A DNA stretch of 64,000 nucleotides from Thermoplasmatota archaeon (GTDB lineage: Archaea; Thermoplasmatota; E2; JACPAO01; JAHFTW01): assembly GCA_038046725.1 (NCBI GenBank), contig JBBSVQ010000040.1:9526-73525 (forward strand), in the 5' to 3' direction. A program made the translations under genes and the position numbers. The notes beneath the pieces are model-generated. The model made no database searches and was not told the DNA's origin. It saw only the letters and a program-made list of their open reading frames with translations. Position 1 is the stretch's first letter. Every line of letters starts with the position of its first letter. Of the stretch, positions 2,180 to 62,960 are shown in pieces.

Positions 2180-2253
2180 CCACCGATTTGCACGGATTCT
2201 CACCGAACGACCCGTTCGGTGCAACTCGACACGTCAGCAGGTTCAGTGGATTG
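2180..2253. repeat. 9-nt-unit hairpin element, degenerate (CACCGA/CACGGAT units)
   Basis: CCACCGATT-TGCACGGAT-TCTCACCGA, with a perfect inner stem CACCGAACG/CGTTCGGTG and a diverged outer right arm ending TCAGTGGATTG. Confidence 0.5.
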
Positions 2254-2277
2254 CCTGAACGACGGCGTGGATTCAAC

Positions 2278-2475
2278 GGCGCGCGTTCCTCCTCGCACAA
2301 GTCCAACGCCCCTGACGGCGACGTCGGCGTGCTGCTGATGGAACCTCCCTCGAAGCGCGCGCCGAAGGCGCGCGAGGCGGCGCCCCGCGCCGCCTAGCCA
2401 ATCCACCATCGGCTTGTTGCCGTGGCCGTCGTCGTCACAAAGAGGTTGACTTGCGTGGGGCACCGAACGGGCGCC
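2278..2475 (+). mobile_element. MITE-like repeat core, copy A
   Basis: Starts GGCGCGCGTTCC and ends GAACGGGCGCC (imperfect terminal inverted repeat). The interior has GACGTCGGCG, GCGCGCCGAAGGCGCGC and GGCGGCGCCCCGCGCCGCC hairpins shared with the other copies. Confidence 0.65.
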
Positions 2476-2598
2476 GGCTGGGACTCGAAAGGCCAACGAG
2501 CGCTCGATTTCACCCAACCCTCCATTCAGTTTGCATCGAAACAAGGGGTGTTCAGGATTGTTGTCGTCCATCAACAACCTTCATATGGTTGTGCGCTA

Positions 2599-2934
2599 AT
2601 GTCACCTGTGCTATGGAAGGTCATCGAAGTCCAACTCCTGGAAGACCTGCAGGTCACGGCCGAGTTCCTGGTGGACGGCAGGGACGTGCAGGAACTCAAG
2701 GTGGTCCTGCACACGCAATCGGGCGGACCGGTCCAATGGTTGGTCCGGATCGAAACGCACGGCGGGAAACCCCACAAGCACGTCGCGTGGGACGACGAGG
2801 GGGAGCTCCGGCACAAGCAACTCAAGGGATGGCCAAGCGACTACTCCAAAGTGGTCACACGAGCCATCCAGGACCTCAAGATGAACCGAGAGATTTACCA
2901 AGCAAGGTACAAAGCATGGATGGCAAGCAAGTAG
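2599..2934 (+). CDS. Small hypothetical protein, first gene of a two-gene cassette (possible toxin-like partner)
   Basis: Internal ATG of ORF 2422..2934; the upstream part of that ORF is repeat sequence. 111 aa, contains GGKPHKHVAWDDEG. Its 3' end overlaps the next gene by 19 nt. Local GC is lower than the surroundings. Confidence 0.5.
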   Translation: MSPVLWKVIEVQLLEDLQVTAEFLVDGRDVQELKVVLHTQSGGPVQWLVRIETHGGKPHKHVAWDDEGELRHKQLKGWPSDYSKVVTRAIQDLKMNREIYQARYKAWMASK

Positions 2935-3263
2935 CCGACAGGGCACTCGACCTGGCCGAACAGCAAATGCTGGCCCTCCTGGCCAATCCGGCTGGAGCAC
3001 CCGACAGGCTCACCATCATCCCCATTCTGACGATGCTCGGAGGCCCGAACGGATTGACGCCGGCGCGCATCGCGCTGTTCATCGAAATCCGCAGCCACGG
3101 AATCTACGAACAGATTCAGGAGCTGGCGGACGCCATGGGTCGGGACAAGCACGCGGTCAGCAAGGACGTCGACGTCCTGGTGCATCACGGCCTCGTGCAC
3201 AAGCAGAAGAAAGGCCGAACTGTGACCATCGAAGCCGACAAGCGCCCCATCTTCCTCGCATGA
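2916..3263 (+). CDS. Winged-helix DNA-binding protein (possible antitoxin/regulator)
   Basis: In-frame ATG inside ORF 2451..3263. LTPARIALFIEIRSHGIYEQIQELADAMGRDKHAVSKDVDVLVHHGLV reads as helix-turn-helix plus wing, like small archaeal HTH proteins paired with toxin-like genes. Confidence 0.6.
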   Translation: MDGKQVADRALDLAEQQMLALLANPAGAPDRLTIIPILTMLGGPNGLTPARIALFIEIRSHGIYEQIQELADAMGRDKHAVSKDVDVLVHHGLVHKQKKGRTVTIEADKRPIFLA

Positions 3264-3438
3264 AGCGCTGCGGCCGGCGGGCGTGTAGGCGTTCCACCAG
3301 GAGTGGCCGAGAGCCCGCGCCGGGCCGGGTTCTCCCGGGGGCCGAGCGCAGCGAGCGCCCCCGCCGTCGCCCAACGTGCTCGTCCTTCGTTTGAAGGTCG
3401 CCCCACACGTTCTTGACCACCCATCCAGTCCCATCCCT

Positions 3439-4257: not shown

Positions 4258-4273
4258 TCCAATCGACGCCCAG

Positions 4274-4359
4274 CCACGAGCCACGGATTGCACGGATGCG
4301 CACGGACCGTCGTTTCCGCGCCAATCCGTCGTTTCCGCGCCAATCCGTGCAATCCGTGG
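4274..4359. repeat. 9-nt-unit hairpin element, CACGGAT variant, with internal 19-nt tandem duplication
   Basis: CCACGGATT-GCACGGATG-CGCACGGAC ... CCAATCCGT-GCAATCCGTGG. The sequence CCGTCGTTTCCGCGCCAAT occurs twice in tandem (4307-4325, 4326-4344). Confidence 0.7.
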
Positions 4360-4440
4360 CAGGTCGGCGGCGTCGGCGTCGGAAGACGTTGCACCTTCGC
4401 GACCAGGAACCGGCGTGGCCGACGGTGGCCGGGAAGGCGA

Positions 4441-4992
4441 CTACTTCGCCAACCGGTCGAGCAGATGCTCGACCTTCTTGCGGAACTGCGCCAGCGTGCC
4501 GTCGTTGACGACCATCTCGTCCGCCAAGGCAATGGTGCGCGCGATTCCCCAAGTCATCTCGCGTTCATCGCGGGCCTTCAGGACGGCGGGGTCGCTGGAG
4601 TCGTCGGCGCGGCCGCGTTTGACCATGCGGTCGAAGCGGTGCTCCGGGTCCGTGTGGATGGCCACGAGGTCGAATTCGTCGCCCAGCTCCCGGCGGAACG
4701 TGTCGACCTCCTCGTGGCTGCGGATCCCATCGATCAAGACGAGTTTGTGGCCAGGGGCTTCTTCGCGGACGCGGTCGCAGGTGCGCTTGGCCCAGACGTC
4801 CTTGCCGTGCGAGGCCCGCATGGCGTTGGCGACTTCCCCGACGTGCTTGGCGTCGCGTGGCTTGCCTTGGCGTTCGACTTCCTCCCAGATGAGGTCGCCC
4901 ATGCGCACGACGGGGATGCCGCGCGCCTTCGCGACCTCCATGGCCTCCGACTTGCCGGAGCCAGGCATCCCGGTGAAGCCGAGCACGCGCAC
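4441..4992 (-). CDS. P-loop nucleotide kinase (archaeal UPF0200 / dephospho-CoA-kinase-like)
   Basis: ORF track. N-terminus MRVLGFTGMPGSGKSE (Walker A) and overall similarity to archaeal UPF0200 kinases. Confidence 0.7.
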   Translation of the reverse strand: MRVLGFTGMPGSGKSEAMEVAKARGIPVVRMGDLIWEEVERQGKPRDAKHVGEVANAMRASHGKDVWAKRTCDRVREEAPGHKLVLIDGIRSHEEVDTFRRELGDEFDLVAIHTDPEHRFDRMVKRGRADDSSDPAVLKARDEREMTWGIARTIALADEMVVNDGTLAQFRKKVEHLLDRLAK

Positions 4993-9159: not shown

Positions 9160-10221
9160 TTACAGCCACCCGCCGATGGTCGGCAAGTCGAGGAACGCGG
9201 AGTCGTAGAAGCGCTCGGCCTCGGCGGGCACGTCCGTCCATGGGATGCCCATGCGGTGCAGGATGTCCGCGCGCAGCGCTAGGTCCGCTGCAATGTCTCC
9301 GAGTTTGATGCCCGTGGCGTCCGCCACCGACACTTCGTACCCCGTGTCATCGACGAAGTAGTGGATGGCGCCCGCCAGGAGGTCCCGCGTCGCAAGGCGG
9401 ACCATGATGGCGTGCAGGCCCTCCTGCACCTCCGGTGGGAGCTTCGGCCAGGCAGGGAACTTGCCGAGCGCCTTGTGCGGCACCAGTCGGCCGTCCTCCG
9501 TCAACGTCTCCGCGACGACCTCGTCGCCCTGCATGCGGAACCCGAACCACGTGAGGTCCGCGGCGAGGTGGTAGGGGCGAACCATGGGGTCCTCGGCGGC
9601 CAGGGGCGCGAGCGCGAGTGCCCAGGCCTCCGAGGGCGAACCCGCTTCTTCGGCGGACCCCGTCGGCGTGGGCGGCCACGATGCCGGCTGGAACCAGCGT
9701 GCGCCGCGTTCGAGATTGGTCTTGATCTCGCGGTCGACGTCGCCCCACATCCCGGACTCGCGCGCGGCTTTCTCGAACATGCGGTTGACCGTGTCGGCGC
9801 GCTCCTGGCCCTTCTGGAGGCGGTACGCGGGCGCCACGCGGCTGACTTGGTCGTCGAATTCCCGTTGCAGGTTGCCTCCTGCGGCCACTTCGACGCCGCG
9901 GCAGCAACGGTTGACGTACACCTCGGTGCGGCGACCGAAGTAGACGTGGAAGGGGAAGTAGCGGCAATGGGCCGGCCGGTCCTCGTACGCCGTGCACCGC
10001 TTGTTCTTCAGGAGGGTGCAGGCGCCGCAGCCACCTTGCGGGGCGAGGAGAACCATCTCTCCGGTGCGCGTGATGGGCAACTGCGGGAACCGGGTCTTGA
10101 GCTTGGCCAATTCCGGCGCCGACGCCTCGGGAGTGAAGGTGCAGCAGAAGCCACAGCCCTCGATGCAGGCATAGCGCAGGCCGTGCAGTTCACGGCGGTC
10201 CATACTGGGCGCGGCAGGCAT
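9160..10221 (-). CDS. YkgJ-family cysteine-cluster (Zn/Fe-chelating CxxCxxCC) protein with C-terminal extension
   Basis: ORF 9160..10416 with internal ATG 10221. CIEGCGFCC...CGACTLL...CTAYEDRPAHCRYFP matches the YkgJ/UPF0153 pattern. The upstream part of the ORF is repeat sequence. Confidence 0.75.
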   Translation of the reverse strand: MPAAPSMDRRELHGLRYACIEGCGFCCTFTPEASAPELAKLKTRFPQLPITRTGEMVLLAPQGGCGACTLLKNKRCTAYEDRPAHCRYFPFHVYFGRRTEVYVNRCCRGVEVAAGGNLQREFDDQVSRVAPAYRLQKGQERADTVNRMFEKAARESGMWGDVDREIKTNLERGARWFQPASWPPTPTGSAEEAGSPSEAWALALAPLAAEDPMVRPYHLAADLTWFGFRMQGDEVVAETLTEDGRLVPHKALGKFPAWPKLPPEVQEGLHAIMVRLATRDLLAGAIHYFVDDTGYEVSVADATGIKLGDIAADLALRADILHRMGIPWTDVPAEAERFYDSAFLDLPTIGGWL

Positions 10222-10282
10222 GGCGGTCGGGATGGGCGCGTCAAGTCGCGGGGTGATGAACCTGCCGCGTCGGGCCGGCCGG

Positions 10283-10346
10283 GCCGCAGAGAAACGTAGA
10301 GCAATCGCGAACCGGTCTCGTCTGCGTCCTCTGCGTTCTCTGCGGC
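10283..10346. repeat. 9-nt-unit hairpin element, GCAGAG variant (left arm degenerate)
   Basis: GCCGCAGAG-AAACGTAGA-GCAATCGCG ... TCTCGTCTG-CGTCCTCTG-CGTTCTCTGCGGC. Confidence 0.55.
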
Positions 10347-10373
10347 TCGTCGAACCCCCTCGGTAGCTTGACC

Positions 10374-10811
10374 TCACGCGAGGGCGAGGTGGAACGCGCG
10401 CGCCGTGTCCGGGCATGCGCCGCGCAACTCCATGGACTGGTGGAGACCAGGCGGCAACGTGTCTTTCTGAACCTCCGTCCAGCCGAGGCGGGCCAACCAG
10501 TCGGGAATCGTCGTCGTCAAGCCGTACGCGTGGCGCAGGCCGGACTTGCGCATCTCCCCCAGGCCGGCGTGCAACAAGGCGGCCCCCAGGCCAGTTCCCC
10601 GTTGCTCAGGGTCCACGATGAGGGAGCGCAGGAGGCCCTTGTCGCCGTAGGCCTCGTACGCGATGGCGCCGACGACGTCGCCGTCGAGGTCCCACACCCA
10701 GAGCCGTTCGCGGTAGTCGTCCAGGCCTTCCAAGGGCAACTTGGCGGCCGAAAGCAGGCGTCGGACCGCCGGGAGGTCGGCGGTGGAGGCTTTCCGAAGC
10801 AAGAGTCGCAC
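10374..10811 (-). CDS. GNAT N-acetyltransferase (possibly ArsN2-like)
   Basis: C-terminal part of ORF 10374..11330. GTG 10811 gives VRLLLRKASTADLPAV... QRGTGLGAALL is the acetyl-CoA binding motif. Confidence 0.75.
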   Translation of the reverse strand: MRLLLRKASTADLPAVRRLLSAAKLPLEGLDDYRERLWVWDLDGDVVGAIAYEAYGDKGLLRSLIVDPEQRGTGLGAALLHAGLGEMRKSGLRHAYGLTTTIPDWLARLGWTEVQKDTLPPGLHQSMELRGACPDTARAFHLALA

Positions 10812-10855: not shown

Positions 10856-11593
10856 CTAGCCCTGGGCTTGGAAGCGCAGCCAACTGAGTCCCTTGGCGCT
10901 GGCTGGTTCGTTGTCGTCGTTCTGCGGTTTGTACCCGGCCCGCGCCGAGAACGCCGACGGGCACTCCTCGCTCAGCGGGCACACGCCGCAGCGGGGGCGG
11001 TTCGCGACGCAGACGAGGCGGCCGTGATCGATGACGCGGTGCGTGTAGCTGGGCCACTGCTTGGGCGCCAGCAAGGCTTCCAAGTCGGCGGCGATGGCGT
11101 CGGGGGTCTTGCTGCGCGTCAAGCCGAGAAGGCGGTTGATGCGCACCATGTGGGTGTCCACGGTGACGCCAGCCGCGAGGCCGAAGGCGGTTCCCAGGAC
11201 CGCGGTGGCCGTCTTGCGGCCCACGCCGGGCAGGGAGGTGAGTGCGTCGAGGTCGGCGGGGACTTCGCCGTGGAAGTCGGCCACGAGTCGGCGCGACAAT
11301 TCGCGCACGTTCTTCGCCTTGGCCCGCCACAAGCCGATGCCGCCGATGTGCATGGCGATGGCGCCGTCAGGCGACTGAGCCATGGACTCGGCATCTGGAT
11401 ACTCCTCGAACAAGGCCCGGGTCGCCTTGTTGACGGCGAGGTCCGTGGTCTGTGCCGACAGGACGGTGGCGACGAGGAGTTGGAACGGCGTCTCGTGGAT
11501 GAGGGCGCACGCGGACTCCGGGTAGGCCCCTTCGAGGTGGCGGGCGATGCGGCGGGCGCGCAGCAGTCTCGCCGCCTTCGACTCGCGCGCCAT
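10856..11593 (-). CDS. nth: Endonuclease III
   Basis: ORF 10856..11725 with internal ATG 11593. HhH-GPD motif LPGVGRKTA and Fe-S cluster loop C-x6-C-x2-C-x5-C. The upstream part of the ORF is hairpin repeat. Confidence 0.9.
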   Translation of the reverse strand: MARESKAARLLRARRIARHLEGAYPESACALIHETPFQLLVATVLSAQTTDLAVNKATRALFEEYPDAESMAQSPDGAIAMHIGGIGLWRAKAKNVRELSRRLVADFHGEVPADLDALTSLPGVGRKTATAVLGTAFGLAAGVTVDTHMVRINRLLGLTRSKTPDAIAADLEALLAPKQWPSYTHRVIDHGRLVCVANRPRCGVCPLSEECPSAFSARAGYKPQNDDNEPASAKGLSWLRFQAQG

Positions 11594-11641
11594 GCTCGGG
11601 AGAGGGGGAGGCGGTTCAAGGCCGTGGCGCTCGCCGCCCAA

Positions 11642-11797
11642 CAATCCGCCGATGACGCCGATGAACGATTCCCACATCGGCGGGTTCGGCGTCATCGCGG
11701 GTTCGTCGCTGCATGGCGAACCCATCCACCGATGACACCGATGCCCACCGATGAACGGTCACCGCATCGGTGCCATCGGTGGGAATCGGTGGATCGG
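11642..11797. repeat. Double hairpin composite (CGCCGATG hairpin + CACCGATG hairpin)
   Basis: Its reverse complement aligns by eye along its whole length with 62799-62960. Confidence 0.8.
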
Positions 11798-11812
11798 TTT
11801 GGGCGTCGTGCG

Positions 11813-12200: not shown

Positions 12201-12403
12201 GGCGCGCGTTCCTGGCCCCGCCGTTCCCACGTCTCCCGACGCCGACGTCGGCGACTTGCTCCACAACCATTTCCCGAAGCGCCGCGCGAAGCGCGGCGAG
12301 GCGGCGCCCCGCGCCCGCCCAGGTTTGCATTCATCGGTTTGAGGTCGCGGTCGGAGTCGTCGTCGGAAGGAGGTTGACTGGCGAGGGTCACCGAACGGGC
12401 GCC
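12201..12403 (+). mobile_element. MITE-like repeat core, copy B
   Basis: Same termini and internal hairpins as copy A, aligned by eye. Confidence 0.65.
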
Positions 12404-12575
12404 GTCGGCTGTTCAGAAAGGACGCCGACTTTGGTCGAGAGCCGACGAACTCGAGGCCGAACGCCGCGAGATGCGGCGCGAGGCGGGCCTGCCCAATCGG
12501 CGAGGCGAGCGTTGGAAACGCGAGCCGAGCGCATGGGGGTTCAGGGGGCCCGCAGGGCCCCCTAGCCTAGGTTTC

Positions 12576-12619
12576 GCACGAAACGCGTGAGGCTTCGAAG
12601 AAGCCGATGCGTTTCGTGC
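12576..12619. repeat. Hairpin GCACGAAACGC/GCGTTTCGTGC with nested GGCTTC/GAAGCC stem (CACGAA-related)
   Basis: Perfect 11-bp stem. Overlaps the stop codon of the 12619..12900 gene, so it may act as a terminator-like structure. Confidence 0.5.
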
Positions 12620-12900
12620 TAGTGGACGCTGTCTGGGTGGTGGTGGCGGTCCCAGCCGGCCATCAGGGCCATGACGCCGAAGAGCACGAAGCCGATGCCC
12701 TCGATGAGGAACAGGAACCCGAGGGCAATCCAGTCGCCGCGGACCGCGGTGGCGCCGATGGGGGAGTCGTCGAAGAACCCCGTCATGCTCAGGCCCCACG
12801 TGATGCCCCCGAAGAGGCCAATCAGCAGCCCGAGGCCGATGAAGATCTCGCCGAACAGGCCGGAGGACCCGACGCCTTCCTGGAATTCCTTGACGTGCAC
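12619..12900 (-). CDS. Small membrane protein
   Basis: C-terminal part of ORF 12619..13716, from GTG 12900. Two or three hydrophobic segments, His-rich tail. The rest of the ORF is antisense to the YyaL-like gene. Confidence 0.45.
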
Positions 12901-12959
12901 GAGGACCCGATGGTCGTCCCTCGGGCAAGAACGTTGCGCTTGCCGTGGGGCCGACCGGA

Positions 12960-13015
12960 CCACGACTTGCACGAAGGCCACGAACCAGGCTTCGTGCGGT
13001 TCGTGCAATTCGTGG
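12960..13015. repeat. 9-nt-unit hairpin element, CACGAA variant
   Basis: CCACGACTT-GCACGAAGG-CCACGAACC aggc TTCGTGCGG-TTCGTGCAA-TTCGTGG. Lies between divergent gene starts. Confidence 0.8.
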
Positions 13016-13074
13016 TTGGTGAAGGATGGCGCCCGTGCGAAAAAGGCCTTCACCGACGCCCCCCTGGCCATGGC

Positions 13075-16581: not shown

Positions 16582-16661
16582 GTCATCGGTGGGCATCGGT
16601 GACATCGGTGGATGGCCTTGCCAGGAGCGGGCCAATCCAGATGACACCGAGGTCACCGATG
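16582..16661. repeat. 9-nt-unit hairpin element, CACCGATG variant (GGATGG/CCAATCC next to loop)
   Basis: GTCATCGGTGG-GCATCGGTG-ACATCGGTGGATGG ... CCAATCCAGATG-ACACCGAGG-TCACCGATG. Confidence 0.8.
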
Positions 16662-16683
16662 CGGTTTCCCTGCGCGCGGAGAA

Positions 16684-27468: not shown

Positions 27469-27554
27469 CGAACCCTTCCAGGAGGTGGACCACTTGACCG
27501 TTGCGGAGCGAGGCCTCTGCAGGCCAACGTGGCGCAGTCAGCTGAAGGCAACCT

Positions 27555-37622: not shown

Positions 37623-37638
37623 CACCGGCACGAAACAA

Positions 37639-37717
37639 CATCGGCGTCGTCGGCGACATCGGCGGATGGTTGGCCCATTGGGTGACCAATCCGCCGATGG
37701 CGCCGAACGCGCCGATG
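37639..37717. repeat. 9-nt-unit hairpin element, CGCCGATG variant
   Basis: CATCGGCG-TCGTCGGCG-ACATCGGCGGATGG ... CCAATCCGCCGATG-GCGCCGAAC-GCGCCGATG. Confidence 0.8.
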
Positions 37718-37730
37718 TGGGTTCCTGGCG

Positions 37731-39422
37731 CTAGGGTTCCGGCGTGCCGAACTTGCCGGCCAGGCGGGAGCCCTTCGGCCAGCCACCGGACGTCGCCTGC
37801 ACCTCGAGGCCGGGCCGGATGGCGCCCGTCGGGCACGCATCGAAGCAGGCGCCGTCGGCGATGCACAAGTCGCGATCCACGCGGGCCATGTCGGTGACGA
37901 TGGCGGCGTCCGTGGGGCATGCGGCTTGGCAGCCGTTGCACACGATGCAGTCCGCGGCGAGCACCCAGGCCTTCTTCTCCTCCGGGAGGGTCTTGGCGAA
38001 GGCCTTCACTGCGGGAACGTCCTTCGGGTTGCCAGTGAACTTGCCACCGACAGCCTCGGGCGCGACAACCGCCGCGGGGCTCGACGCGGGCGTGGGCGGA
38101 GCCGGCGTGGCCGCGGGGGCCTTCGCCTGCTTGGGCGCCTCGTGCACGACGGGCGATGCCGCCTGCGGCACAGAGCCCACAGAGGACACCGAGTCAGACT
38201 TCTGCGCGCTCTGTGCCTTGGGGAGCGGGGTAGCCGCGGTCCCCGGCGGGGGCACGGCGGCCGGCTTGGTTCCCGACTTCACCGCGCGCTCGGCGGCGGC
38301 CTGACGGTCGGCGTCGAGGGTGTCCTTCGTGGGCACCATCCACTTGGCGGTGGCGAGCTTGCGTTTGTTGGCCTCCGCGATGAGGGCGTCCACGTGGCCC
38401 TTCCAGTCGCCGACGAGGCCGAGATCGGAGTACTGGAAGATGGCGGCGCTCGGGTCGGAGTTGATGGCGATGATGGTGCCCGACTCCTTCATGCCCTCGA
38501 TGTGCTGGATGGCGCCGGAGATGCCGACGGCGATGTACAGCTTGGGACGGACCGAGATGCCGGTCTGGCCGACTTGGCGGCCGCGCTCCATCCAGCCCTT
38601 GTCGGCGACGGGGCGCGAGCAGGCGACTTGGCCTCCCAGGGCCTGGGCGAGCTCCTCGAGCTTGGCGAAGCCTTCCGGGCCGCCGATGCCGACGCCGCCG
38701 GCGACGAGGACGTCGGCCTTCGTGATGTCGGCCTTGACGTCATCGACGACGTAGGAGATGACTTGGGCGGCGTACGTCTTGCCGTCGAGCCACTTCGTGT
38801 CGGCGTTGTGCACCTTGCCCGACCGCTTGGTGTCGGGGTGGAGGGGCTTGAAGATGCCGGGGCGCGCCGTGGCCATCTGGGGGCGGTGGCGGTCGCAGCG
38901 AATGGTGGCGAGCATTTTGCCGCCGAAGGCCGGGCGGCGGGCGAGGAGTTCGCCGTTGACGGCGTCGACGTCGAGTTCCGTGCAGTCGGCCGTCATGCCG
39001 GCGTCAAGGGTCGCGGCCACGCGGGACGAGATGTCGCGGCCGGTGTGCGTGGCGCCGATGAGGACGATGTTGGGCTTGTGTTGCTCGATGAGGGCGTTCA
39101 GGACGTCCGTCGAGGGGCGGGCCAGGGGGGTCTTCAGGACAGGGTGCTGCGCCAGGATGACTTCGTCGGCGCCCGCGTGCAGGCACTGGGCGGCGAGGTC
39201 GGTGACTTGGTGGCCAAGGATGACGGCGGTGACCTTGTGGTGCAGCTTCTCCGCCATGGGGCGCGCGGCGCCGAGCAGTTCGAGGGTGACCGGGCGCAGT
39301 TGGCCGTCGCGGTGCTCCACGATGACCCAGACGCCCTTCCAGTCCGCGAAGGAGTCGCAGGGTTTGCAGGCGCGGAACTGGATGGCGTCGTAGCGGCTCC
39401 CCTTGCGACGGGACCGATCCAC
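37731..39422 (-). CDS. etfA: Electron transfer flavoprotein alpha subunit fused to a C-terminal 2x[4Fe-4S] ferredoxin domain
   Basis: ORF 37731..39512. EtfA core (AVGISGAIQHIEGMKESGTIIAIN), then a 110-aa Ala/Pro-rich linker or so, then CIVCNGCQAACP...CIADGACFDACP. GTG 39422 chosen, start uncertain; upstream codons are hairpin repeat. Confidence 0.85.
   Translation of the reverse strand: MDRSRRKGSRYDAIQFRACKPCDSFADWKGVWVIVEHRDGQLRPVTLELLGAARPMAEKLHHKVTAVILGHQVTDLAAQCLHAGADEVILAQHPVLKTPLARPSTDVLNALIEQHKPNIVLIGATHTGRDISSRVAATLDAGMTADCTELDVDAVNGELLARRPAFGGKMLATIRCDRHRPQMATARPGIFKPLHPDTKRSGKVHNADTKWLDGKTYAAQVISYVVDDVKADITKADVLVAGGVGIGGPEGFAKLEELAQALGGQVACSRPVADKGWMERGRQVGQTGISVRPKLYIAVGISGAIQHIEGMKESGTIIAINSDPSAAIFQYSDLGLVGDWKGHVDALIAEANKRKLATAKWMVPTKDTLDADRQAAAERAVKSGTKPAAVPPPGTAATPLPKAQSAQKSDSVSSVGSVPQAASPVVHEAPKQAKAPAATPAPPTPASSPAAVVAPEAVGGKFTGNPKDVPAVKAFAKTLPEEKKAWVLAADCIVCNGCQAACPTDAAIVTDMARVDRDLCIADGACFDACPTGAIRPGLEVQATSGGWPKGSRLAGKFGTPEP
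38167..38217. repeat. 9-nt-unit hairpin element, GCAGAG/CACAGAG variant, inside the etfA linker coding region
   Basis: GGCACAGAG-CCCACAGAG-GACACCGAG tcag ACTTCTGCG-CGCTCTGTGCC. Translated on the minus strand as KAQSAQKSDSVSSVGSVPQ. Confidence 0.7.
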
Positions 39423-39490
39423 CGATGACACCGATGTCACCGATGCGGTTGCCGTGCCGGCCATCGGTGTCATCGGTGACATCGGTGGAT
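39416..39490. repeat. 9-nt-unit hairpin element, CACCGATG variant (ATCC ends distal)
   Basis: ATCCACCGATG-ACACCGATG-TCACCGATG cggttgccgtgccggc CATCGGTG-TCATCGGTG-ACATCGGTGGAT. Lies between etfB and etfA. Confidence 0.9.
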
Positions 39491-39508
39491 TCGTTTCGTG
39501 GGCGGGAG

Positions 39509-40414
39509 TCACTGGCCCACGCTCCCGCGTGTGAACAGTTCATTGACGAGTTCGCCGGCGTTACCGAGTTTCTTTGCGTGGCGCTCGAAACCGCTCGAGA
39601 TATCGACCTTGCCGACGATGGTGGGGCTGCCCTTGAGGCCGACCCAGGAAGGGTCCTTGATGTCGGTCAGGTCCGCGAGGCTCCAGACGACGAGTTGCGT
39701 CTGGGCGCCCTTGACTTTGCCGTTGAGGGTGGCGATGCGCGGCGTGTTGATCTTCAACTCGCACGTCAAGGCGACGGGCAGCGGGAGGCGGAGGGTCTCG
39801 TGGCCGCCGCCGATGGAACGGACCGCGGTCACGGTCTCGGACACCGGGTCGAACTCGGCGCTGTGGATGTAGGTCGCCTGCTCGGTGTCGAGTTGGCCTG
39901 CGACGCCGGGGCCGACTTGGCCCGTGGAGGCGTCCGTGGTCTCCTCGCCGAAGAGGATGATGTCGACGTCGCCCCAGGTCTTGCTGATCTTCTTGATGCC
40001 GGCCGAGAGCGTCATGCTCGTCGGCCAAGTGTCGGCGCCGGCAAAGGCACGGTCCGTGATGAGCACGCCGCGGTCGGCGCCGCGGGCGACGCATTCGCGC
40101 AGCATGATGTCGAAGAACGGGGGGCCCATGGTGACCACAGAGACCTGGGCGCCGAAGCGGTCCTTGAACTGCAAGGCCATCTCGAAGGCGTTCTCGTCGG
40201 GGGGGTTGATGATGTTCTTGACCTTGGTGCGGTCGAGCGTCTTCTTGACGGGATCGATGGTCAAGTCGGTGGCGTCCGGCGTCATCTTCATGCAGACGAC
40301 GACGTGCAGCGGGCGGCCGAGCGAAGGGATGTTGACGGGCTGCGAGACCCTGCGGCTGGCGGCCTGCGGGGTTCCCTTTTGGGCTCCGTTGCTCGACGGG
40401 GGGACCGAAGTCAT
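39509..40414 (-). CDS. etfB: Electron transfer flavoprotein beta subunit
   Basis: ORF track. VVVCMKMTPD...NPPDENAFEMAL...DIILFGEETTD, typical EtfB. N-terminal extension of about 35 aa. Confidence 0.9.
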   Translation of the reverse strand: MTSVPPSSNGAQKGTPQAASRRVSQPVNIPSLGRPLHVVVCMKMTPDATDLTIDPVKKTLDRTKVKNIINPPDENAFEMALQFKDRFGAQVSVVTMGPPFFDIMLRECVARGADRGVLITDRAFAGADTWPTSMTLSAGIKKISKTWGDVDIILFGEETTDASTGQVGPGVAGQLDTEQATYIHSAEFDPVSETVTAVRSIGGGHETLRLPLPVALTCELKINTPRIATLNGKVKGAQTQLVVWSLADLTDIKDPSWVGLKGSPTIVGKVDISSGFERHAKKLGNAGELVNELFTRGSVGQ

Positions 40415-42504: not shown

Positions 42505-42608
42505 GTGCGCCCTTCCTTGGCGGCGCGACAGAGGGGCGGTTTATGAGGAAAGCGGGGCGGCCTAGCCCACATCCAGGACGCGGTCAAGCAACATGCTCAT
42601 GGTCTGCC

Positions 42609-42796
42609 CGCGCGCGCTCCTGGCCCCAACCGTGCAACAGCTTCCGACGCCGACGGCGGCGGTTTGCACCACCAAGACTCGAAGCAGCGCGCGAAGCGCG
42701 CCGAGGCGGCGCCCCGCGCCGCGGCCAATCTCTGGCTTGTGAGCGTCGTCGGAGTCGTCACAAGGAGGTTGAATTCTGTGGCAATGAACGGGCGCC
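42609..42796 (+). mobile_element. MITE-like repeat core, copy F
   Basis: Left end GCGCGCGCTCC (diverged), right end GAACGGGCGCC, central hairpins conserved. Confidence 0.6.
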
Positions 42797-42877
42797 GGCA
42801 TGACGTTTGGGGGGATTGGCGAAAGGCGCGGCAAGACGGCGGTTCTTGCCGATGCCGGCCCCTTTAGGCGTTCGTCG

Positions 42878-43678: not shown

Positions 43679-43713
43679 CCCGGTTCCGCGGGCACCTGAC
43701 GACTCCCGAACCG

Positions 43714-43786
43714 GGATTGCGGTGATGACGGTGACGCCGGCCCTGGCTCGGCGCACCCCATCACTGGGCATCACCGGAATCACTGG
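43714..43786. repeat. 9-nt-unit hairpin element, GGTGAT/ATCACY variant
   Basis: GGATTGCGGTGATG-ACGGTGACG ... CCATCACTG-GGCATCACC-GGAATCACTGG. About 18 of 24 positions are complementary by eye. Confidence 0.6.
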
Positions 43787-43808
43787 TTGGGTGGTCGAGG
43801 GCGGGAGC

Positions 43809-46785: not shown

Positions 46786-46985
46786 GGCGCGCGTTCCAAC
46801 TTGCGACCGAATGGCGCTTTCTCCGCCGACGGTGGCGGCTTGCCCAGGGATGCGTTGGCGAAGCGGCGCGCGTAGCGCGCCGAGGCGACGCCCCGCGCCG
46901 CCAAGGGACGTCATCAGAGGCTTGACGGCGGCGTCGGCGTCGCCGTCAGAAGGAGGTTGACTGGCGTGGCGCCCGAACGGGCGCG
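46786..46985 (+). mobile_element. MITE-like repeat core, copy G
   Basis: GGCGCGCGTTCC ... GAACGGGCGCG. Lies between the ABCE1 start and the MBL hydrolase. Confidence 0.65.
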
Positions 46986-46990
46986 GTCGA

Positions 46991-49224: not shown

Positions 49225-49727
49225 TGGAGCCCACCGAACTGCTGCCCTACTTCCAGCTCGTGGGACAGATTGCCCTCGTCGTCGGCGCCGGCGTGGCCGT
49301 CTACCAGCTGATGCAGTTGCGCCAGTCGCGCCATTCGGAGGCGGCGCTGCAAGTCATTACGAGTCTGCAGACGCAGGAGTTCCGCGACGCCTTCAACCTC
49401 GTCAATGAATTGCCGCTCGGGGCGACGGCGGACCAGGTGCGCGCCGACCCGCGCGTCGAGACTGCGGCGGGCACCATCATGATGACGTTCGAGACGCTCG
49501 GTGTTCTCGTGCATTCGCGCATCGTTCCCATTGAACTCGTGGACCAGGTCATCGGCGGGTTCCTGCGCGAGTCCTGGCGCCGCCTGGAGCCGTACACGAT
49601 GTGGAAGCGCAAGGCCATCGGCTCCGCGCGTTGGGGCGAGTGGTACCAGTGGCTCTTCGAGCACCTGGCCGTGAACCCGAGGCGCCAGCAAGGTGCGTAC
49701 GAGGTCTTCCGCGAGTGGAAGGCCTGA
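49224..49727 (+). CDS. Hypothetical protein with N-terminal TM helix (DUF4760-like?)
   Basis: ORF track 49221..49727. ATG 49224 overlaps the lipA stop (TGATG). Family assignment is from memory only. Confidence 0.5.
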   Translation: MEPTELLPYFQLVGQIALVVGAGVAVYQLMQLRQSRHSEAALQVITSLQTQEFRDAFNLVNELPLGATADQVRADPRVETAAGTIMMTFETLGVLVHSRIVPIELVDQVIGGFLRESWRRLEPYTMWKRKAIGSARWGEWYQWLFEHLAVNPRRQQGAYEVFREWKA

Positions 49728-49729
49728 CC

Positions 49730-49924
49730 GCGCCCGTTCGGTGCCCACGCGCAACCAACGTCTTGTGACGCCGACCCCGACGCCGAGGTCAAGCCAGTGA
49801 TTTCTTGGCGGCGCGGGGCGCCGCCTCGCGCGCCTTCGGCGCGCGCTTCGGCACCTGTTGCGTGTGCAAGTCCCCGTCGTCGGCGTCGGAAGGCGTTGGA
49901 CTCGTGCGAGGAGGAATGCGCGCC
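49730..49924 (-). mobile_element. MITE-like repeat core, copy H
   Basis: Reverse orientation. Starts 3 nt after the stop of 49224..49727. Its reverse complement aligns almost end to end with copy A. Confidence 0.65.
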
Positions 49925-50012
49925 GTCATGGCGCGTTGCGGTTGGTGGGGCGCATGAGTCTTGACTTGCACCGGTCCAAGCCGACGCGCTGGACCGTGGG
50001 GGCGGGTCGCCC

Positions 50013-53476: not shown

Positions 53477-53546
53477 GAACCACGAAACCCACGAAGCGCA
53501 CGAACGAGAGCGCAGCGCTTCGTGCGTTTCGTGCAATTCGTGGTTC
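53477..53546. repeat. 9-nt-unit hairpin element, CACGAA variant
   Basis: GAACCACGAAA-CCCACGAAG-CGCACGAAC ... CTTCGTGCG-TTTCGTGCA-ATTCGTGGTTC. Lies between E1beta and E2. Confidence 0.85.
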
Positions 53547-53563: not shown

Positions 53564-55000
53564 ATGACATTCCAATTCAAGCTGCCCGACATCGGCGAAG
53601 GAATCCAAGAGGGCGAAATCGTCCGCTGGATCAAGAACGAGGGCGACGCCGTCAAGGAAGACGAGCCCATCGTCGAAGTCATGACGGACAAGGCCACCGT
53701 CGAGTTGACCAGCCCGCGCAAGGGCGTCATCAAGAAGTGCCACTTCGCCGAGGGCGACATGGCGAAGGTCGGCCAAGTCATCGTCGAGATCGAGGAAGGC
53801 GCGACTGCCAATCCGACGGAGCCACAGAGCGCGCAGAGTCCGCAGACAACGTCTTCTGCGACCTCTGCGGGCTCTGCGGCCCCGGCGAAGTCCGCCGCCA
53901 AGGACGCCAAGGCCGAGTCCAAACCCGAGGCCAAGAAGGAGGAAAAGGAGGAAAAGACCCTCTTCGAGCTCCCCAAGGAGATGGCCGCAGCGACGAAGGT
54001 CATCAACCGGCGCGGAGCCGCCCCGTCGGCCCCGGCCCAGCCCTCCGCGCCCACCAAGCCGGCTGTGCCATCCGGCTACAAGGCCACGGCCGCGCCCGCC
54101 GTGCGCCGCTACGCCCGCGAGAAGGGCATCGACCTCAACCAGGTCCTCGGCACCGGCCAAAATGGCCGCGTGACCCGGGAAGACCTCGACGCGTTCCAGT
54201 CGGGCGGCGCCCGCGCGCCGCAGGACGCCCCCGCCCCGATGGCCGTCGGCGGTGCCCGCTTTGGGTACACCGACGTCAAGTACAGCACGAACCCGGCCCT
54301 CGAGGAGCGCGTGCCGCTGCGCGGCCTGCGCCGCACCATCTCGAAGGCGATGGAGCGCTCGAAGTTCACGGCGACGCACTTCACGTACGTCGCGGAAGTG
54401 GACTGCGACAACCTCGTTCGCCTGCGCGACTCCGCCAAGAAGGTCGCCGATGAGCGCGGCGTGAAGCTCACCTTCATGCCGTTCTTCGTCAAGGCCGCCG
54501 TCGCGGCGCTCAAGCGCCACCCGGACGTCAACGTCGCCTTCGACGAGAACACCTCCGAGATTGTCAAGAAGAAGTACTGGCACATCGGCGTCGCCACGGC
54601 CACGGACGCGGGCCTCATCGTTCCCGTCGTGAAGGACGCGGACCGCAAGGGCGTCCTCGACATCGCCCGCGAAGTGGCGGACCTGTCGGAGCGAACCAAG
54701 GCCGGCAAGGCCAAGCTCGAGGAGCTCACCGGCTCGACGTTCAGCATCACGAGCCTCGGCAAGCTCGGTGGTGTCCTGGCCACGCCCATCCTGAACTACC
54801 CCGAGGTCGCCATCATGGGCGTCCACGAGATGAAGCAGGTCCCCGTCGTCAAGGAGGGCCAACTTGCCATCGGTTGGCGCATGAACCTGAGCTTCACCTT
54901 CGACCACCGCATCGTCGACGGCTACAACGGCGCCATGTTCGCCAACACCCTCGTCTCCTACCTCGAGGACCCCCAGCTCCTCCTGCTGGAGAGTCTCTGA
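53564..55000 (+). CDS. Dihydrolipoamide acyltransferase E2
   Basis: ORF 53522..55000 with internal ATG 53564, GGAGG 9 nt upstream. Lipoyl domain ([11 protein letters not shown]), PSBD ([14 protein letters not shown]), catalytic DHRIVDG. Confidence 0.93.
53808..53880. repeat. 9-nt-unit hairpin element, GCAGAG variant, inside the E2 linker coding region
   Basis: CCAATCC...GCCACAGAG-CGCGCAGAG-TCCGCAGAC aacg TCTTCTGCG-ACCTCTGCG-GGCTCTGCGGC. Translated as [20 protein letters not shown]. Confidence 0.8.
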
Positions 55001-57158: not shown

Positions 57159-57164
57159 CCGAAC

Positions 57165-60556: not shown

Positions 60557-60580
60557 GGCCTGGTCAGTCCATGGACAGGC

Positions 60581-60646
60581 GAACCACGAATTGCACGAAG
60601 GCCACGAACCGCGACGGTTTCGTGCATTTCGTGCCATTCGTGGTTC
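60581..60646. repeat. 9-nt-unit hairpin element, CACGAA variant
   Basis: GAACCACGAAT-TGCACGAAG-GCCACGAAC cgcgacgg TTTCGTGCA-TTTCGTGCC-ATTCGTGGTTC. Lies between argJ and argB. Confidence 0.9.
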
Positions 60647-60700
60647 CGCTGCCGCCCAACCTCGGCTTGATACCCTCCCCCCGCGTCCGGTGAACTGCCC

Positions 60701-61489
60701 ATGCCCACAATCGTCCTCAAGCTCGGCGGAGCCATCTGCCTCGATCCGTCCCAAGTGGACGCCGTCGCGGGGGAAGTCAAGGCCCTGCAAGCCGCCGGCC
60801 ACCAAGTGGTGCTCGTGCATGGCGGCGGGCCGCAACTCGACGCCGCAATCGCGGACCTGGGCGAAGCGGCCGTCAAGATTGATGGCCTGCGCGTCACCAG
60901 CAAGGCGGCCGCCAAGGTCGTCCTCGACGTCATGGACGCCATCGGCAAGCAGCTCACCAGTCAGCTCGGCGCGGCCGGCGTCAAGTCTCACCACGTGCCC
61001 GGCGTCGCGGAGGGCTTCCAGGCGTCCGTGAAGAGGTCGGACAAGGGCGACCTCGGCCGCGTCGGGACCGTGCAGCGCTTCACGGCGCAGCACCGCATCC
61101 ATGGCGCCGCTGAACTGGCCGTCGTGACTCCCGTCGGCTTCGATGCGCAGGGTCCGCTCAACATCAACGCCGACGAGGGGGCCGCCTCGGTCGCCACCGC
61201 CTTGCGGGCGAAGTGGCTCATCCTCGGCACCGACGTCGCCGCGGTCCGGGGCGCCGAAGGCGAACCCCTGTCCCGCCTGACGCCGCGCTCGGCGCGCAAG
61301 CTCATCCAGGAGAACACCGCCGTCGGCGGCATGATTCCCAAGCTCACCTCGGCGGTCAACGCGCTGTCCGGCGGTGTGTCCAAGGTCATCGTGACGAAAG
61401 TGCAGCCGGGCCTCCTGGTGGATGCCATCCTGCGCGGCAAAGTGCAGGGAACGCTCGTCGAGAACGACGCCGTCATGGGGCTGGCCTGA
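60701..61489 (+). CDS. argB: Acetylglutamate kinase
   Basis: ORF track. VLKLGGA, VLVHGGGPQ and NINADEGA motifs. Confidence 0.9.
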   Translation: MPTIVLKLGGAICLDPSQVDAVAGEVKALQAAGHQVVLVHGGGPQLDAAIADLGEAAVKIDGLRVTSKAAAKVVLDVMDAIGKQLTSQLGAAGVKSHHVPGVAEGFQASVKRSDKGDLGRVGTVQRFTAQHRIHGAAELAVVTPVGFDAQGPLNINADEGAASVATALRAKWLILGTDVAAVRGAEGEPLSRLTPRSARKLIQENTAVGGMIPKLTSAVNALSGGVSKVIVTKVQPGLLVDAILRGKVQGTLVENDAVMGLA

Positions 61490-61503
61490 TGCACGCCCGC
61501 CCA

Positions 61504-61562
61504 GCCGCGAATTTCGCGAAGGACCGCGAAGCCCTGTTCGCGCTTTTCGCGCAATTCGCGGC
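61504..61562. repeat. 9-nt-unit hairpin element, CGCGAA variant
   Basis: GCCGCGAAT-TTCGCGAAG-GACCGCGAAG ccctg TTCGCGCTT-TTCGCGCAA-TTCGCGGC. Lies between argB and argD. Confidence 0.85.
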
Positions 61563-61583
61563 TTCGTCGTCGGGGGTCGCCGC

Positions 61584-62795
61584 ATGACGTACTCCGCGAA
61601 ACGCTGGGAGACCGCGATGGCGCCCAACTACACGACGCCCGCCATCCAGCTCCTGTCGGGAACCGGCAGCCGCGTCACGGACGCCGACGGCAAGGAATAC
61701 CTCGACCTGCTCGCCGGCATCGCCGTCAACATCCTCGGCCATGCGCACCCGGCCATCGTGAAGGCCGTGACGACGCAGGTCGGCCTGCTTGCGCACACGT
61801 CGAACCTCTACGCCAACGCGCCTTCGCTGCGGCTGGCCGAGCGACTGCAGGAACGCACAGCTGGCTTCGCCCCTGGCGGATACAAGACCATCTTCCAGAA
61901 CTCGGGGACGGAAGCCAACGAGGGCGCGCTCAAGCTGCTGCGCCGCCATGCCCACGCGCAGGGAATGCCCGAAGCCGTCGTCGTCGCCTTCGAGAATTCC
62001 TTCCACGGCCGCACGACTGGCGCCGTCAAACTGACGGGCCAGAAATCGTACCAGGAAGGCTTCGACCCGCTGCCGACGCAGATCGTGCACGTGCCCTTCA
62101 ACGACCCCGCCGCCCTCGAGCGCGTCTTTGCGCAGAACAAGGTTGCCGGCGTCTTCTTCGAGTCCGTCCAAGGCGAAGGCGGCGTGCTGCCCATGGACGC
62201 CGACACCGCGTGGGCGCTGCGCAAACTCAGCCAAGCCAACGGAGCCCTCCTCGTCGCCGACGAAGTCCAGACCGGCGTCGGCCGCACGGGCAAATTCTTC
62301 GGCTTCCAACACGACGGCCTCACCCCGGACGTCATCACGCTCGCCAAGGGCCTGGGCGGCGGCCTGCCCATTGGAGCCATCCTCATCCACCCGAAGGCTG
62401 CGACCCTGTTCGCCCCCGGCGCCCACGGAACGACGTTCGGAGGCAACGCCGTGGCCTGCGCCGCTGGCAACGCCGTCCTCGACGTCCTCGAGCGCGATTC
62501 CCTCGTGCCCCGCGCCGGCAGCCTCGGCGAACAGTTCATGGCGGAGTTGGCTGAGCAGGGCTTGCCTGCCCGCGGCCGCGGTTTGCTCGTCGGCGTCCCG
62601 CTCGACGGCCCCAAGGCCCCCGACGTCGTGACCGCCTTGCGCGGCAAGGGCATCCTCGTCGGCCAGGCGGGCAAGTCGGTGCTTCGCATCGCGCCGGCCC
62701 TCAACATCAAGGAAGCGGACCTCGTGGGCGCAATCCCGGCCATCGTCGACGCCATCGCGTCGGTGAAACCCGCGGCGACGGCTACCGCGCACTAG
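61584..62795 (+). CDS. argD: Acetylornithine aminotransferase (class III PLP)
   Basis: ORF 61422..62795 with internal ATG 61584. NSGTEANE, DEVQTGVGRTG and TLAKGLGGG (PLP lysine) motifs. Confidence 0.9.
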   Translation: MTYSAKRWETAMAPNYTTPAIQLLSGTGSRVTDADGKEYLDLLAGIAVNILGHAHPAIVKAVTTQVGLLAHTSNLYANAPSLRLAERLQERTAGFAPGGYKTIFQNSGTEANEGALKLLRRHAHAQGMPEAVVVAFENSFHGRTTGAVKLTGQKSYQEGFDPLPTQIVHVPFNDPAALERVFAQNKVAGVFFESVQGEGGVLPMDADTAWALRKLSQANGALLVADEVQTGVGRTGKFFGFQHDGLTPDVITLAKGLGGGLPIGAILIHPKAATLFAPGAHGTTFGGNAVACAAGNAVLDVLERDSLVPRAGSLGEQFMAELAEQGLPARGRGLLVGVPLDGPKAPDVVTALRGKGILVGQAGKSVLRIAPALNIKEADLVGAIPAIVDAIASVKPAATATAH

Positions 62796-62798
62796 CCG

Positions 62799-62960
62799 CA
62801 ATCCACCGATGCCCACCGATGGCACCGATGCGGTTCCCCATCGGTGGAAATCGGTGTCATCCGTGGATGGGTCCGTCGTGCCGCGACAATCCGCCGATGA
62901 CGCCGAACCCGCCGATGCAGGAATCGTTCATCGGCGATATCGGCGTCATCGGCGGATTGG
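62799..62960. repeat. Double hairpin composite (CACCGATG hairpin + CGCCGATG hairpin)
   Basis: CAATCCACCGATG-CCCACCGATG-GCACCGATG ... GGATGG, then CAATCCGCCGATG-ACGCCGAAC-CCGCCGATG ... CATCGGCGGATTGG. It is the inverted counterpart of 11642-11797. Confidence 0.85.

Follow-up and report, generated by a model that had tools for sequence, protein, structure and literature searches.

Dense repeat systems of the repetitive extragenic palindromic (REP) kind are a hallmark of some bacteria, and we know of no description of such a system in archaea. REP monomers combine into head–head or tail–tail (HH/TT) dimers and into larger mosaics (PMC3733652). The non-IS200 Y1 transposase classes, those of the REP-associated tyrosine transposases (RAYTs), have been reported only from bacteria and as absent from archaea; the repeats of class 3 TnpA_Y1 are high-copy, structured sequences of Acidobacteria (Solibacter), Planctomycetes and Proteobacteria with a CnGA 'foot' (PMC6006769) and the sequence C[CAG]GAGCCGCGACCGTAAGGGAGCGG (PMC6006769, Table S1). 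Here we describe a family of hairpin elements in 64 kb of DNA from a Thermoplasmatota archaeon (contig JBBSVQ010000040.1; the whole stretch is called the window, and positions are counted from its first base). Each arm of these hairpins is built from three short direct units of one core sequence, and the core changes in concert in both arms, from locus to locus and at single gene junctions from relative to relative.

The window has a GC content of 68% overall and 66–71% along its length. It was searched by inverted-repeat, period-9 and triple-hexamer scans, and loci were folded with RNAfold and by DNA folding. Twenty hairpin loci of ~60–85 bases each were recovered, about one per 3 kb, and all of the roughly 20 loci reported in a first-pass annotation of this DNA were found at or near the positions reported. 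The scans yielded 26 arms in which an exact hexamer occurs three times at 9–10-nt spacing, 20 of which have an inverted partner within 110 nt. By comparison, such arms averaged 0.09 in third-order Markov sequences and 0.05 in triplet shuffles, with a maximum of 1 in 100 each, and the window holds no exact-hexamer triples at spacings of 6–8, 11–15 or 18 nt. This composition-matched comparison, run on the window, identifies a real repeat family with a fixed architecture and variable cores, as had been proposed. The inverted-repeat arms are 17–52 nt long with 73–100% complementarity, and each locus folds, as RNA and as DNA, into a long hairpin composed of three short helices and small internal loops. 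When 12 loci were folded as single-stranded DNA, they gave z values of −3.4 to −9.2, which none of 200 shuffles equalled. The hairpins are not an assembly artefact, because the same stretches are 100% identical in independent assemblies (sequences from elsewhere carry L numbers; here L115 and L131 of GCA_964365265.1, and L132 from Logan run ERR3858122).

The cores fall into families whose counts match those of the first-pass annotation: CACCGATG at seven loci (11723, 16584, 27557, 29858, 35073, 39417 and 62801), CGCCGATG at three (11641, 37638 and 62887), CACGAA at three (12959, 53477 and 60579), CGCGAA at one (61503), CACGGAT at one (4280) and also at a decayed mixed-core locus (2180), GCAGAG/CACAGAG at three (10280, 38167 and 53817) and GGTGAT/CAGTGAT at one (43705). 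The basic part is a module of ~30 nt, made of a head, in which NNCC is fused to the first unit, and three C[A/G]C-xxxx units. Each unit comprises C[A/G]C, 3–5 family-specific bases and a linker of 1–3 nt, the core being 6–8 nt. On the C[A/G]C strand, the heads read ATCC-ACCGATG, (G)AACC-ACGAA, GCC-ACGGAT, GCC-GCAGAG and AACC-AGTGAT. Modules in the window are always paired in inverted orientation, and a three-helix hairpin can therefore form on either strand. The pairing is head-out at 13 loci, with a spacer of ~6–27 nt, and head-in (GGATGG-spacer-CCATCC) at five CACC/CGCC loci, with a spacer of ~17–25 nt, which agrees with the two arrangements claimed earlier (the ATCC head distal, or GGATGG and CCATCC flanking the loop). 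Cores pair and linkers are often unpaired, those of the CACGAA family forming 3 × 3 internal loops. That both arms of a locus have the same core also holds in essentially all cases, the exceptions being at the level of units: 62801 has a single CACGGATG unit, and 2180 is of mixed core. The period had been given as 9 nt and read as three codons. It is near 9 nt but actually 9–10 nt, with linkers of 1–3 nt, and a coding meaning was rejected on the grounds of these variable linkers, of a 10-nt period in bacteria and of the mostly non-coding copies.

The pairing of the arms was examined by aligning seven hairpins with CACGAA, CGCGAA or CACGGA cores, taken from three genomes. RNAalifold recovers the three-helix stem, in which 9 of 23 pairs have changed on both sides; A–U/G–C switches occupy corresponding positions in the three helices, and one column has three G·U cells. 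Paired cells make up 94.3% of the alignment versus 86.3% after shuffling, cells changed on both sides number 18 versus 7.6, and the covariation score is 0.36 versus 0.19; in each measure, none of 500 shuffles was as high. With the partner slid by 1–3 columns, paired cells amount to 28–46%. The arm-to-arm compensatory changes that had been reported are thus borne out.

Orthologous junctions in related genomes reveal both lineage-specific presence of the hairpins and a change of core at the same place. At the etfB–etfA junction, the window has six CACCGATG units. In L116 (~90% nucleotide identity in the flanking genes), the 16-nt spacer is identical and all six units are of the CGCC type, namely four CGCCGATG, one CGCCAATG and one CGCCGACG, the last two with a further substitution; this contig terminates inside the hairpin. 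In L117 (92% protein identity), the hairpin has CACAGAG units, its spacer is related and the flank on the right is homologous, and in L118, L119 and L120 (75–82% identity) the hairpin is absent and stop and start codons overlap (TGATG). At argB–argD, the six CGCGAA units of the window correspond in L139 (79% ArgB identity) to a CGCGAAA arm opposite a CACGAAA (GTG) arm, which yields G·T pairs, and in L133 (82% identity) to mixed CACGGA and CGCGGA units; L138 (84% identity) again has a TGATG overlap and no hairpin. The argD-side inner flanks (GG.GGTCGCYGC-ATGA) are homologous in the three filled sites, which argues for one old insertion whose cores diverged afterwards. At argJ–argB, the window has CACGAA units, L133 has a CTGGGAT-type hairpin with a GTGTGGG head, and L138 and L139 have none. 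Many hairpins are missing in relatives whose flanking proteins are 75–84% identical; those in the EtfA linker and at the 3′ end of the EtfA gene, for example, do not occur in L118 or L119. A hairpin is also present in the E2 linker of L139, though not the same one. Throughout, the relatives' hairpins have three units per arm. The concerted core change seen between loci thus also occurs at one locus over time, in single-transition steps. Separately, L119 (77% EtfB identity) has short arrays downstream of EtfA at 4400-4470, CGCGGATG twice and ATCCACAGAA-CACACAGAA.

Covariation could also result from selection for RNA pairing, and the hairpins might then be host RNA elements that serve as 3′ stabilisers of operon mRNAs, processing sites, terminators or modulators of translational coupling. 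Eighteen of the 20 loci are intergenic, typically 5–50 nt from a stop or start codon and many of them within operons, the covariation includes G·U-type intermediates, three diverged lineages still have a hairpin at argB–argD, and Shine–Dalgarno-like GGAGG/GGGGG stands between hairpin and downstream ATG at argD and E2, all of which would fit such a role. We nonetheless consider it unlikely. The strand asymmetry expected of RNA was rejected by a rough mismatch count (ungapped alignment of 23 hairpins of known transcription direction), in which G·T (36) and A·C (37) were about equally frequent on the sense strand. Divergent gene pairs, too, have hairpins between them, two mirror arrangements exist, no T-tract follows the hairpins, and pairing as such demands neither same-sequence helices within one stem nor exactly three units. 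Moreover, bacterial relatives of the modules, described below, are often single arms in either orientation, and turnover is high, most hairpins being missing at 75–84% protein identity. Because G·T and A·C mismatches are equal, and because of the hairpins between divergent genes, the mirror arrangements and the unoriented bacterial modules, a property of DNA rather than of RNA is favoured.

The entity that repeats is the single arm, or module, and not the whole hairpin: variants of 29–32 nt, identical including their linkers, occur at different loci, where they adjoin unrelated spacers and different partner variants. The variant ATCCACCGATG-A-CACCGATG-T-CACCGATG is present at 29906, 35104 and 39414, and 16616 and 29890 have a T/CC variant in common. 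The CGCC-family loci 11641, 37638 and 62887 all have the odd unit CGCCGAAC in the middle, and the CGCGAA locus retains the CACGAA-family linkers TTN...CAA and GGMC...CNT. Since module variants, odd units and linkers are common to separate loci, the copies are related by descent, and an origin de novo at each site by slippage alone is ruled out by these idiosyncratic features. In addition, a lone CACGAAAC unit lies directly outside hairpins of the CACC/CGCC type at 39491-39502 (CCCACGAAACGA, adjoining ATCC...) and 37626-37637 (GGCACGAAACAA, adjoining CATCGG...), which hints at mosaics of units from different families.

The sole duplicate of a whole element marks the ends of a rearrangement. In L133, L134, L135 and L138, the gene order is ArgD, endonuclease III (EndoIII), CxxCxxCC, adh_short, AAA_17, deaminase and iron-containing alcohol dehydrogenase (Fe-ADH). 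In the window, the end of ArgD (plus strand) is at 62.8 kb, and the genes from EndoIII to Fe-ADH lie on the minus strand, from 11.7 kb down to 1.1 kb; judged by this gene order, a segment of ~51 kb is inverted relative to the four related contigs. A composite of two hairpins, one CGCC and one CACC, with spacers included, lies at each end of the inverted segment, and the left composite (11625-11810) is 88% identical to the reverse complement of the right one (62790-62975). The inversion may have arisen by homologous recombination of two pre-existing inverted copies or by replicative duplication of one copy.

Beyond the window, one genome per GTDB species was scanned for the pattern CACCGATG-N1-2 repeated three times, and at least 114 stretches matched. 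Among the matches listed, some are coding tandem repeats (GGCACCGAT type), and ~70 are arrays with a 10-nt period, nearly all of the form NNC-CACCGATG-RA-CACCGATG-RA-CACCGAT(G); in these bacterial arrays, three units are by far the commonest number, and the heads are AAC, AGC or GGC plus C, nearly all CCAC. Also among the matches listed, the 10-nt module is found in Holophagaceae, Geothrix and other Acidobacteriota, in Phycisphaerae, Tepidisphaerales and other Planctomycetota, and in Verrucomicrobiota, Lentisphaeraceae, Leptospiraceae, Latescibacterota, Hydrogenedentota and Nitrospiraceae. It is present as well in metagenome-assembled genomes (MAGs) of groundwater 'Deltaproteobacteria' (Myxococcota-like; 71–72% GC), on many contigs of one genome; the head GGAACCAC is common to these modules and the CACGAA family of the window. 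An archaeal MAG labelled Halobacteriales (L031, L048, L078 and L114) and a Thermoplasmata MAG (L111) also have modules with the 9-nt period and an ATCC head. The repeat had first been taken for an archaeal family; it does belong to archaea, but it is not limited to them, the same design being present in many bacterial phyla. We take bacterial and archaeal modules to be elements of one kind, and they are likely to share descent.

Bacterial loci comprise single arms as well as head-out and head-in pairs, and single modules have no orientation bias relative to genes. Further cores occur in bacteria (CACGGATG, CACAGATG, CACTGATG, CACAAAG, CACGGAG and CACNGATG with each of the four bases at N), and orthologous intergenic sites of two Acidobacteria (L004 versus L050) have different cores. 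Unit number differs at apparently orthologous loci with near-identical flanks, with 10 units in L089 versus 6 in L098. No gene family recurs beside the bacterial arrays in an all-against-all BLASTP comparison of 3453 open reading frames (ORFs) from 114 loci, and BLAST searches of plasmid and phage collections returned no match, although their low-complexity filter may mask these repeats. Viral contigs gave ten pattern matches, nine of which are tandem arrays with a 9-nt unit, of the in-phase GCACCGATG type (collagen-like and probably coding) or similar; the remaining one, on L125, consists of three CCCACCGATG units at a 10-nt period, with CCCCCACGG(A) units on its flanks. None of the ten has an inverted partner within its 60-nt flanks. 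As a separate observation, a Holophagaceae MAG (L004, 1-150 and 2740-2900) has consecutive same-orientation arrays upstream of genes (ATCACCG three times, ATCAGTG three times and CTCCGTG three to five times), and GTGGTGAA closes the run ~20 nt ahead of the start codon.

The bacterial modules bear on a second explanation, that the elements are not hairpins but binding arrays in double-stranded DNA, in which three iterons about one helical turn apart per module would be occupied by a DNA-binding protein, for instance an organiser of the nucleoid or of chromatin, a regulator of the ribbon-helix-helix type or a partition-like protein. Tandem sites of 7–11 bp, direct or inverted, are familiar from MetJ metboxes, omega heptads and ParR iterons. 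Such an array would be compatible with a 9–10-bp period and three units in both archaea and bacteria, with the single arms that are common in bacteria, with orientation-independent modules and with head-out and head-in pairs separated by variable spacers. The ribbon-helix-helix-bound arrays (MetJ metboxes, omega heptads and ParR/parC) resemble the window family in their contiguous 7–11-bp units, 2–10 per array, direct or inverted; they differ in being a few regulatory sites per replicon of one fixed sequence, rather than many-core copies dispersed by the hundred. A single protein, however, could not read the seven or more different cores found within 64 kb, the cores at one locus differ between relatives, two independent arrays would have no need of strict arm matching, and archaeal modules always stand in inverted pairs. 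We therefore regard this explanation as improbable.

The reading that we favour, with confidence that is about evenly balanced, is that the elements are interspersed palindromes of a REP/BIME/REPIN-like kind, whose action and evolution take place at the level of DNA (BIME, bacterial interspersed mosaic element; REPIN, REP doublet forming a hairpin). Modules would spread to gene boundaries, including former overlapping stop/start junctions, and to flexible protein linkers. Once placed, an element would persist for a long time, and the iteron sequence of every unit, on either arm, would change, for the most part by single transitions via G·T intermediates. Units and arms may be copied by replication slippage among tandem units and by template switching or mismatch correction in an extruded hairpin or cruciform, probably with a GC bias. 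Conversion via slipped or extruded hairpins would account for the matching arms and the G·T intermediates, and slippage for the homogeneity of units and the variation of unit number in bacteria. The likeness of units may be constrained by a trans-acting, sequence-reading factor of the transposase, recombinase or binding type that works on triple-iteron modules; such a reader would account for a constant number of units and for cores that form a discrete set. Being scattered inverted homologies, the elements would also drive rearrangement.

Several observations weigh against this DNA-level reading. Searches of the window and of the flanks examined turned up no transposase and no HUH/Y1 gene, and RAYTs, as mentioned, are reported to be absent from archaea (PMC6006769). 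A target-site duplication was not definable at argB–argD or at the other loci compared: between filled and empty argB–argD sites only an ATG is repeated, which the downstream gene needs anyway, and no consistent duplication is present elsewhere. No recent presence/absence polymorphism was seen between near-identical genomes; an apparent indel between the window and L115 (354 nt versus 100 nt) was discarded, as L115 7794-7893, equivalent to window 42522-42874, is a scaffold gap of 100 N. Identical copies of arm, loop and arm are absent save for the one composite, which is a poor fit to simple transposition of a MITE (miniature inverted-repeat transposable element). Linkers are not homogenised though cores are, which pure conversion would not predict. 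Finally, retention of the argB–argD architecture across ~80% ArgB identity could equally reflect a host function. A bolder proposal, which we put forward tentatively, is that the ~30-nt triple-iteron module (a CCAC head plus three C[A/G]C-N units) constitutes an unrecognised class of prokaryotic interspersed element, present in archaea and at least eight bacterial phyla, handled by an enzyme or binding factor that would recognise triple tandem units, and rewritten in concert throughout each locus: a self-homogenising 'mini-satellite' that would be neither REP/RAYT nor MITE. If this is true, palindromic elements of a new class spread, persist at gene junctions and reshape chromosomes.

Within the window, the neighbouring genes named by the first-pass annotation were confirmed where checked against Pfam and gene tables (etfB–etfA, E1beta–E2, argJ–argB, argB–argD, PTP–aquaporin, and FKBP with a small neighbouring gene). 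Hairpins also lie between further, convergent pairs (deaminase–kinase, SET–EtfA and argD–aRF1) and between divergent pairs (EndoIII–DUF255 and VOC–CorA). Intergenic loci are given here without a strand. The leftmost locus, 2180-2252, is the decayed hairpin with mixed cores (CACCGAT, CACGGAT and CACCGAA), 8 nt past the Fe-ADH stop codon. The next, 4280-4360 (CACGGAT, head-out, z −6.6), separates a convergent deaminase-like gene and an AAA_17 kinase gene; on its right side, at 4307-4345, a 19-nt tandem duplication of CCGTCGTTTCCGCGCCAAT is a sign of local slippage. The hairpin at 10280-10349 (GCAGAG, head-out) is at the 5′ end of the CxxCxxCC-domain gene, within the longest ORF and upstream of the Pfam domain. 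The left composite holds 11641-11706 (CGCCGATG, head-out), at the 5′ end of the EndoIII gene, and, as its second half, 11723-11795 (CACCGATG, head-out), and 12959-13016 (CACGAA, head-out, AACCAC head, z −5.6) lies upstream of a DUF255 domain gene.

Four CACCGATG loci are head-in: 16584-16662, with GGATGG beside the loop and a decayed right arm, between the co-directional aquaporin and LMW-PTP genes; 27557-27636, between the divergent VOC and CorA genes; 29858-29937 (z −7.1), whose arms are two different module variants, 26 nt from an Mrp/NUBPL gene; and 35073-35153, 17 nt past an ABC-F stop codon. The hairpin with the lowest z value (−9.2), 37638-37718 (CGCCGATG, head-in), fills the gap between the convergent SET and EtfA-Fer4 genes, and its inverted repeat reaches 37626-37730, taking in both stop codons. 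The etfB–etfA hairpin, given as an example in the first-pass annotation, is at 39417-39490 (CACCGATG, head-out, z −8.8), and 43705-43791 (CGGTGAT/CAGTGAT, head-out, AACCAG head, z −4.9) lies between FKBP and a small co-directional gene. CACGAA hairpins occupy the E1beta–E2 junction (53477-53546, head-out, GAACCAC head, z −6.5) and the argJ–argB junction (60579-60648, head-out, z −5.9), followed at argB–argD by the CGCGAA hairpin 61503-61563 (head-out, z −4.9). The right composite comprises 62801-62868 (CACCGATG, head-out), 5 nt past the argD stop codon, and 62887-62959 (CGCCGATG, head-out, z −8.9), an inverted duplicate of 11641-11706 including the loop.

The remaining two of the 20 loci, which the first-pass annotation had not placed inside genes, are in frame within flexible inter-domain linkers: 38167-38217 on the minus strand (CACAGAG), in the Ala/Pro-rich linker from ETF_alpha to 4Fe-4S of the EtfA–ferredoxin fusion, and 53817-53884 on the plus strand (GCAGAG/CACAGAG, z −6.3), in the E2 linker from the lipoyl to the E3-binding domain. 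The fusion itself (37731-39428, minus strand) joins EtfA to a C-terminal 4Fe-4S ferredoxin domain through a variable linker and is kept in L118 and L119. The longest-ORF or database starts of the EndoIII, etfA, CorA, DUF255 and CxxCxxCC proteins lie in or upstream of hairpins (10856-11725, 39428-39512, 27437-27560, 12607-13020 and 10280-10416), and their Pfam domains start well downstream; EndoIII, for instance, measures 289 aa as the longest ORF versus 279 aa in databases. These five start codons are probably over-extended miscalls. CTAG was rejected as an insertion target: 5 of 29 CTAG sites are near hairpins, but these are merely TAG stop codons. A tRNA-derived element was likewise rejected, as no tRNA or tmRNA genes were found.

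The window also contains a second, unrelated dispersed repeat of ~190–200 nt, whose copies are 75–82% identical (2276-2474, 12201-12409, 28701-28896, 31107-31287, 42632-42795, 46856-46988 and 49726-49926, with one in L131 at 9491-9680). Inverted repeats (CGGCGCGCGTTCC ... GGAACGGGCGCCG) form its termini, its centre is a GC-rich palindrome, and CACAAGGAGGTTGAC is conserved close to one end; it gave no Rfam match at the gathering score, and by these features it looks like a MITE or a small-RNA gene. The 354 nt of the window opposite the 100-N gap of L115 contain a copy of it.

The hairpin family has practical and evolutionary consequences. In this Thermoplasmatota genome, a REP-like system takes up much of the intergenic space and marks the ends of the 51-kb inversion. 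Its identical units, matching arms and cores that differ by locus and by relative amount to clear concerted evolution at the scale of tens of bases, which could offer a way to investigate slippage, GC-biased repair and conversion through hairpins or cruciforms in archaea, and a common factor is suggested by finding this module in many bacterial phyla. The hairpins also break assemblies, mislead start-codon calling (EndoIII, etfA, CorA and DUF255) and add peptide segments to linkers.

How the family relates to described elements was assessed by database and literature searches. The window and 18 related loci gave no Rfam match at the gathering score, and a permissive Rfam scan (E ≤ 5) returned merely sub-threshold, generic miRNA-hairpin matches. 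A search of a literature library by motif sequence and by concept found no description of the motif, only general work on REP, RAYT and MITE. On these two grounds, the earlier suggestion that the family is undescribed stands.

A kinship with the attC recombination sites of integron-type systems, which are structure-conserved and sequence-variable palindromes between co-directional genes, seems very remote. Integrons have been reported in archaeal MAGs, the window palindromes vary in sequence within a common architecture, and several lie between co-directional genes. Their neighbours, however, are syntenic core operons (arg, etf and 2-oxoacid dehydrogenase), not cassettes; hairpins also occur between convergent or divergent genes and within genes, their ends do not fit the attC boxes RYYYAAC...GTTRRRY, and no integrase is present in the window.

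MITEs (Correia/NEMIS, ERIC, RUP, Nezha and those of Sulfolobus and haloarchaea) resemble the window family in being small, non-coding and intergenic, with terminal inverted repeats, and in being tolerated in operons and sometimes read through in frame. In contrast to MITEs, the window elements have an internal region of only a 6–27-nt spacer, the head-in pairing is not a MITE topology, the loci have arms rather than loops in common, and no parent insertion sequence was seen. The repeats of class 3 TnpA_Y1 occur in matching phyla, and the window cores hold C-N-G-A (CCGA, CGGA and CAGA); the match was rejected because their motif is different and lacks tandem iterons (PMC6006769, Table S1). Rickettsia palindromic elements (RPEs) likewise lie in frame in tolerant protein regions, here the E2 and EtfA–ferredoxin linkers, but they are 100–150 bp long, mostly within genes, without iterated sub-units and confined to Rickettsiales.

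The closest resemblance is to REP/BIME/REPIN, which, with RPEs, had been named as the nearest analogies; HH/TT-like dimers, sequence that differs at conserved positions and in-frame gene-internal copies support that choice. Both are dense, short, GC-rich intergenic palindromes, often in operons just past stop codons; both are lineage-specific, differ in sequence at the same junction in relatives and act as rearrangement substrates. Singlets and doublets both occur in REP/BIME/REPIN and among the bacterial modules, and the inverted dimers and high intergenic copy number of REP have their counterpart here in 20 loci per 64 kb, 18 of them intergenic, in both arrangements. The differences are equally clear. 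The REP tag GT[AG]G or CGTC is not found in the window family, which has ATCC, AACC or GCC heads fused to C[A/G]C and in which GTGG/CCAC occurs only within the paired stem. A REP monomer is an imperfect palindrome of 20–40 nt, whereas the window monomer is not a stem-loop but three direct iterons of ~9–10 nt; of single arms, only those with CATCGGTG units can pair with themselves, via G·T, and CACGAA and GCAGAG arms cannot. Unlike in REP, all units of a locus have one core that changes in concert, and the design spans many phyla in both domains. REP and REPIN are mobilised by RAYT (TnpA_REP) in Proteobacteria, whereas the window family belongs to an archaeon, and no RAYT was seen among the ~40 window ORFs (by Pfam) or in the Pfam lists of L115, L116, L131, L133, L138 and L139. 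We therefore file the family among the interspersed palindromic repeats, with REP/BIME/REPIN as the most similar in behaviour, but under none of the named families.

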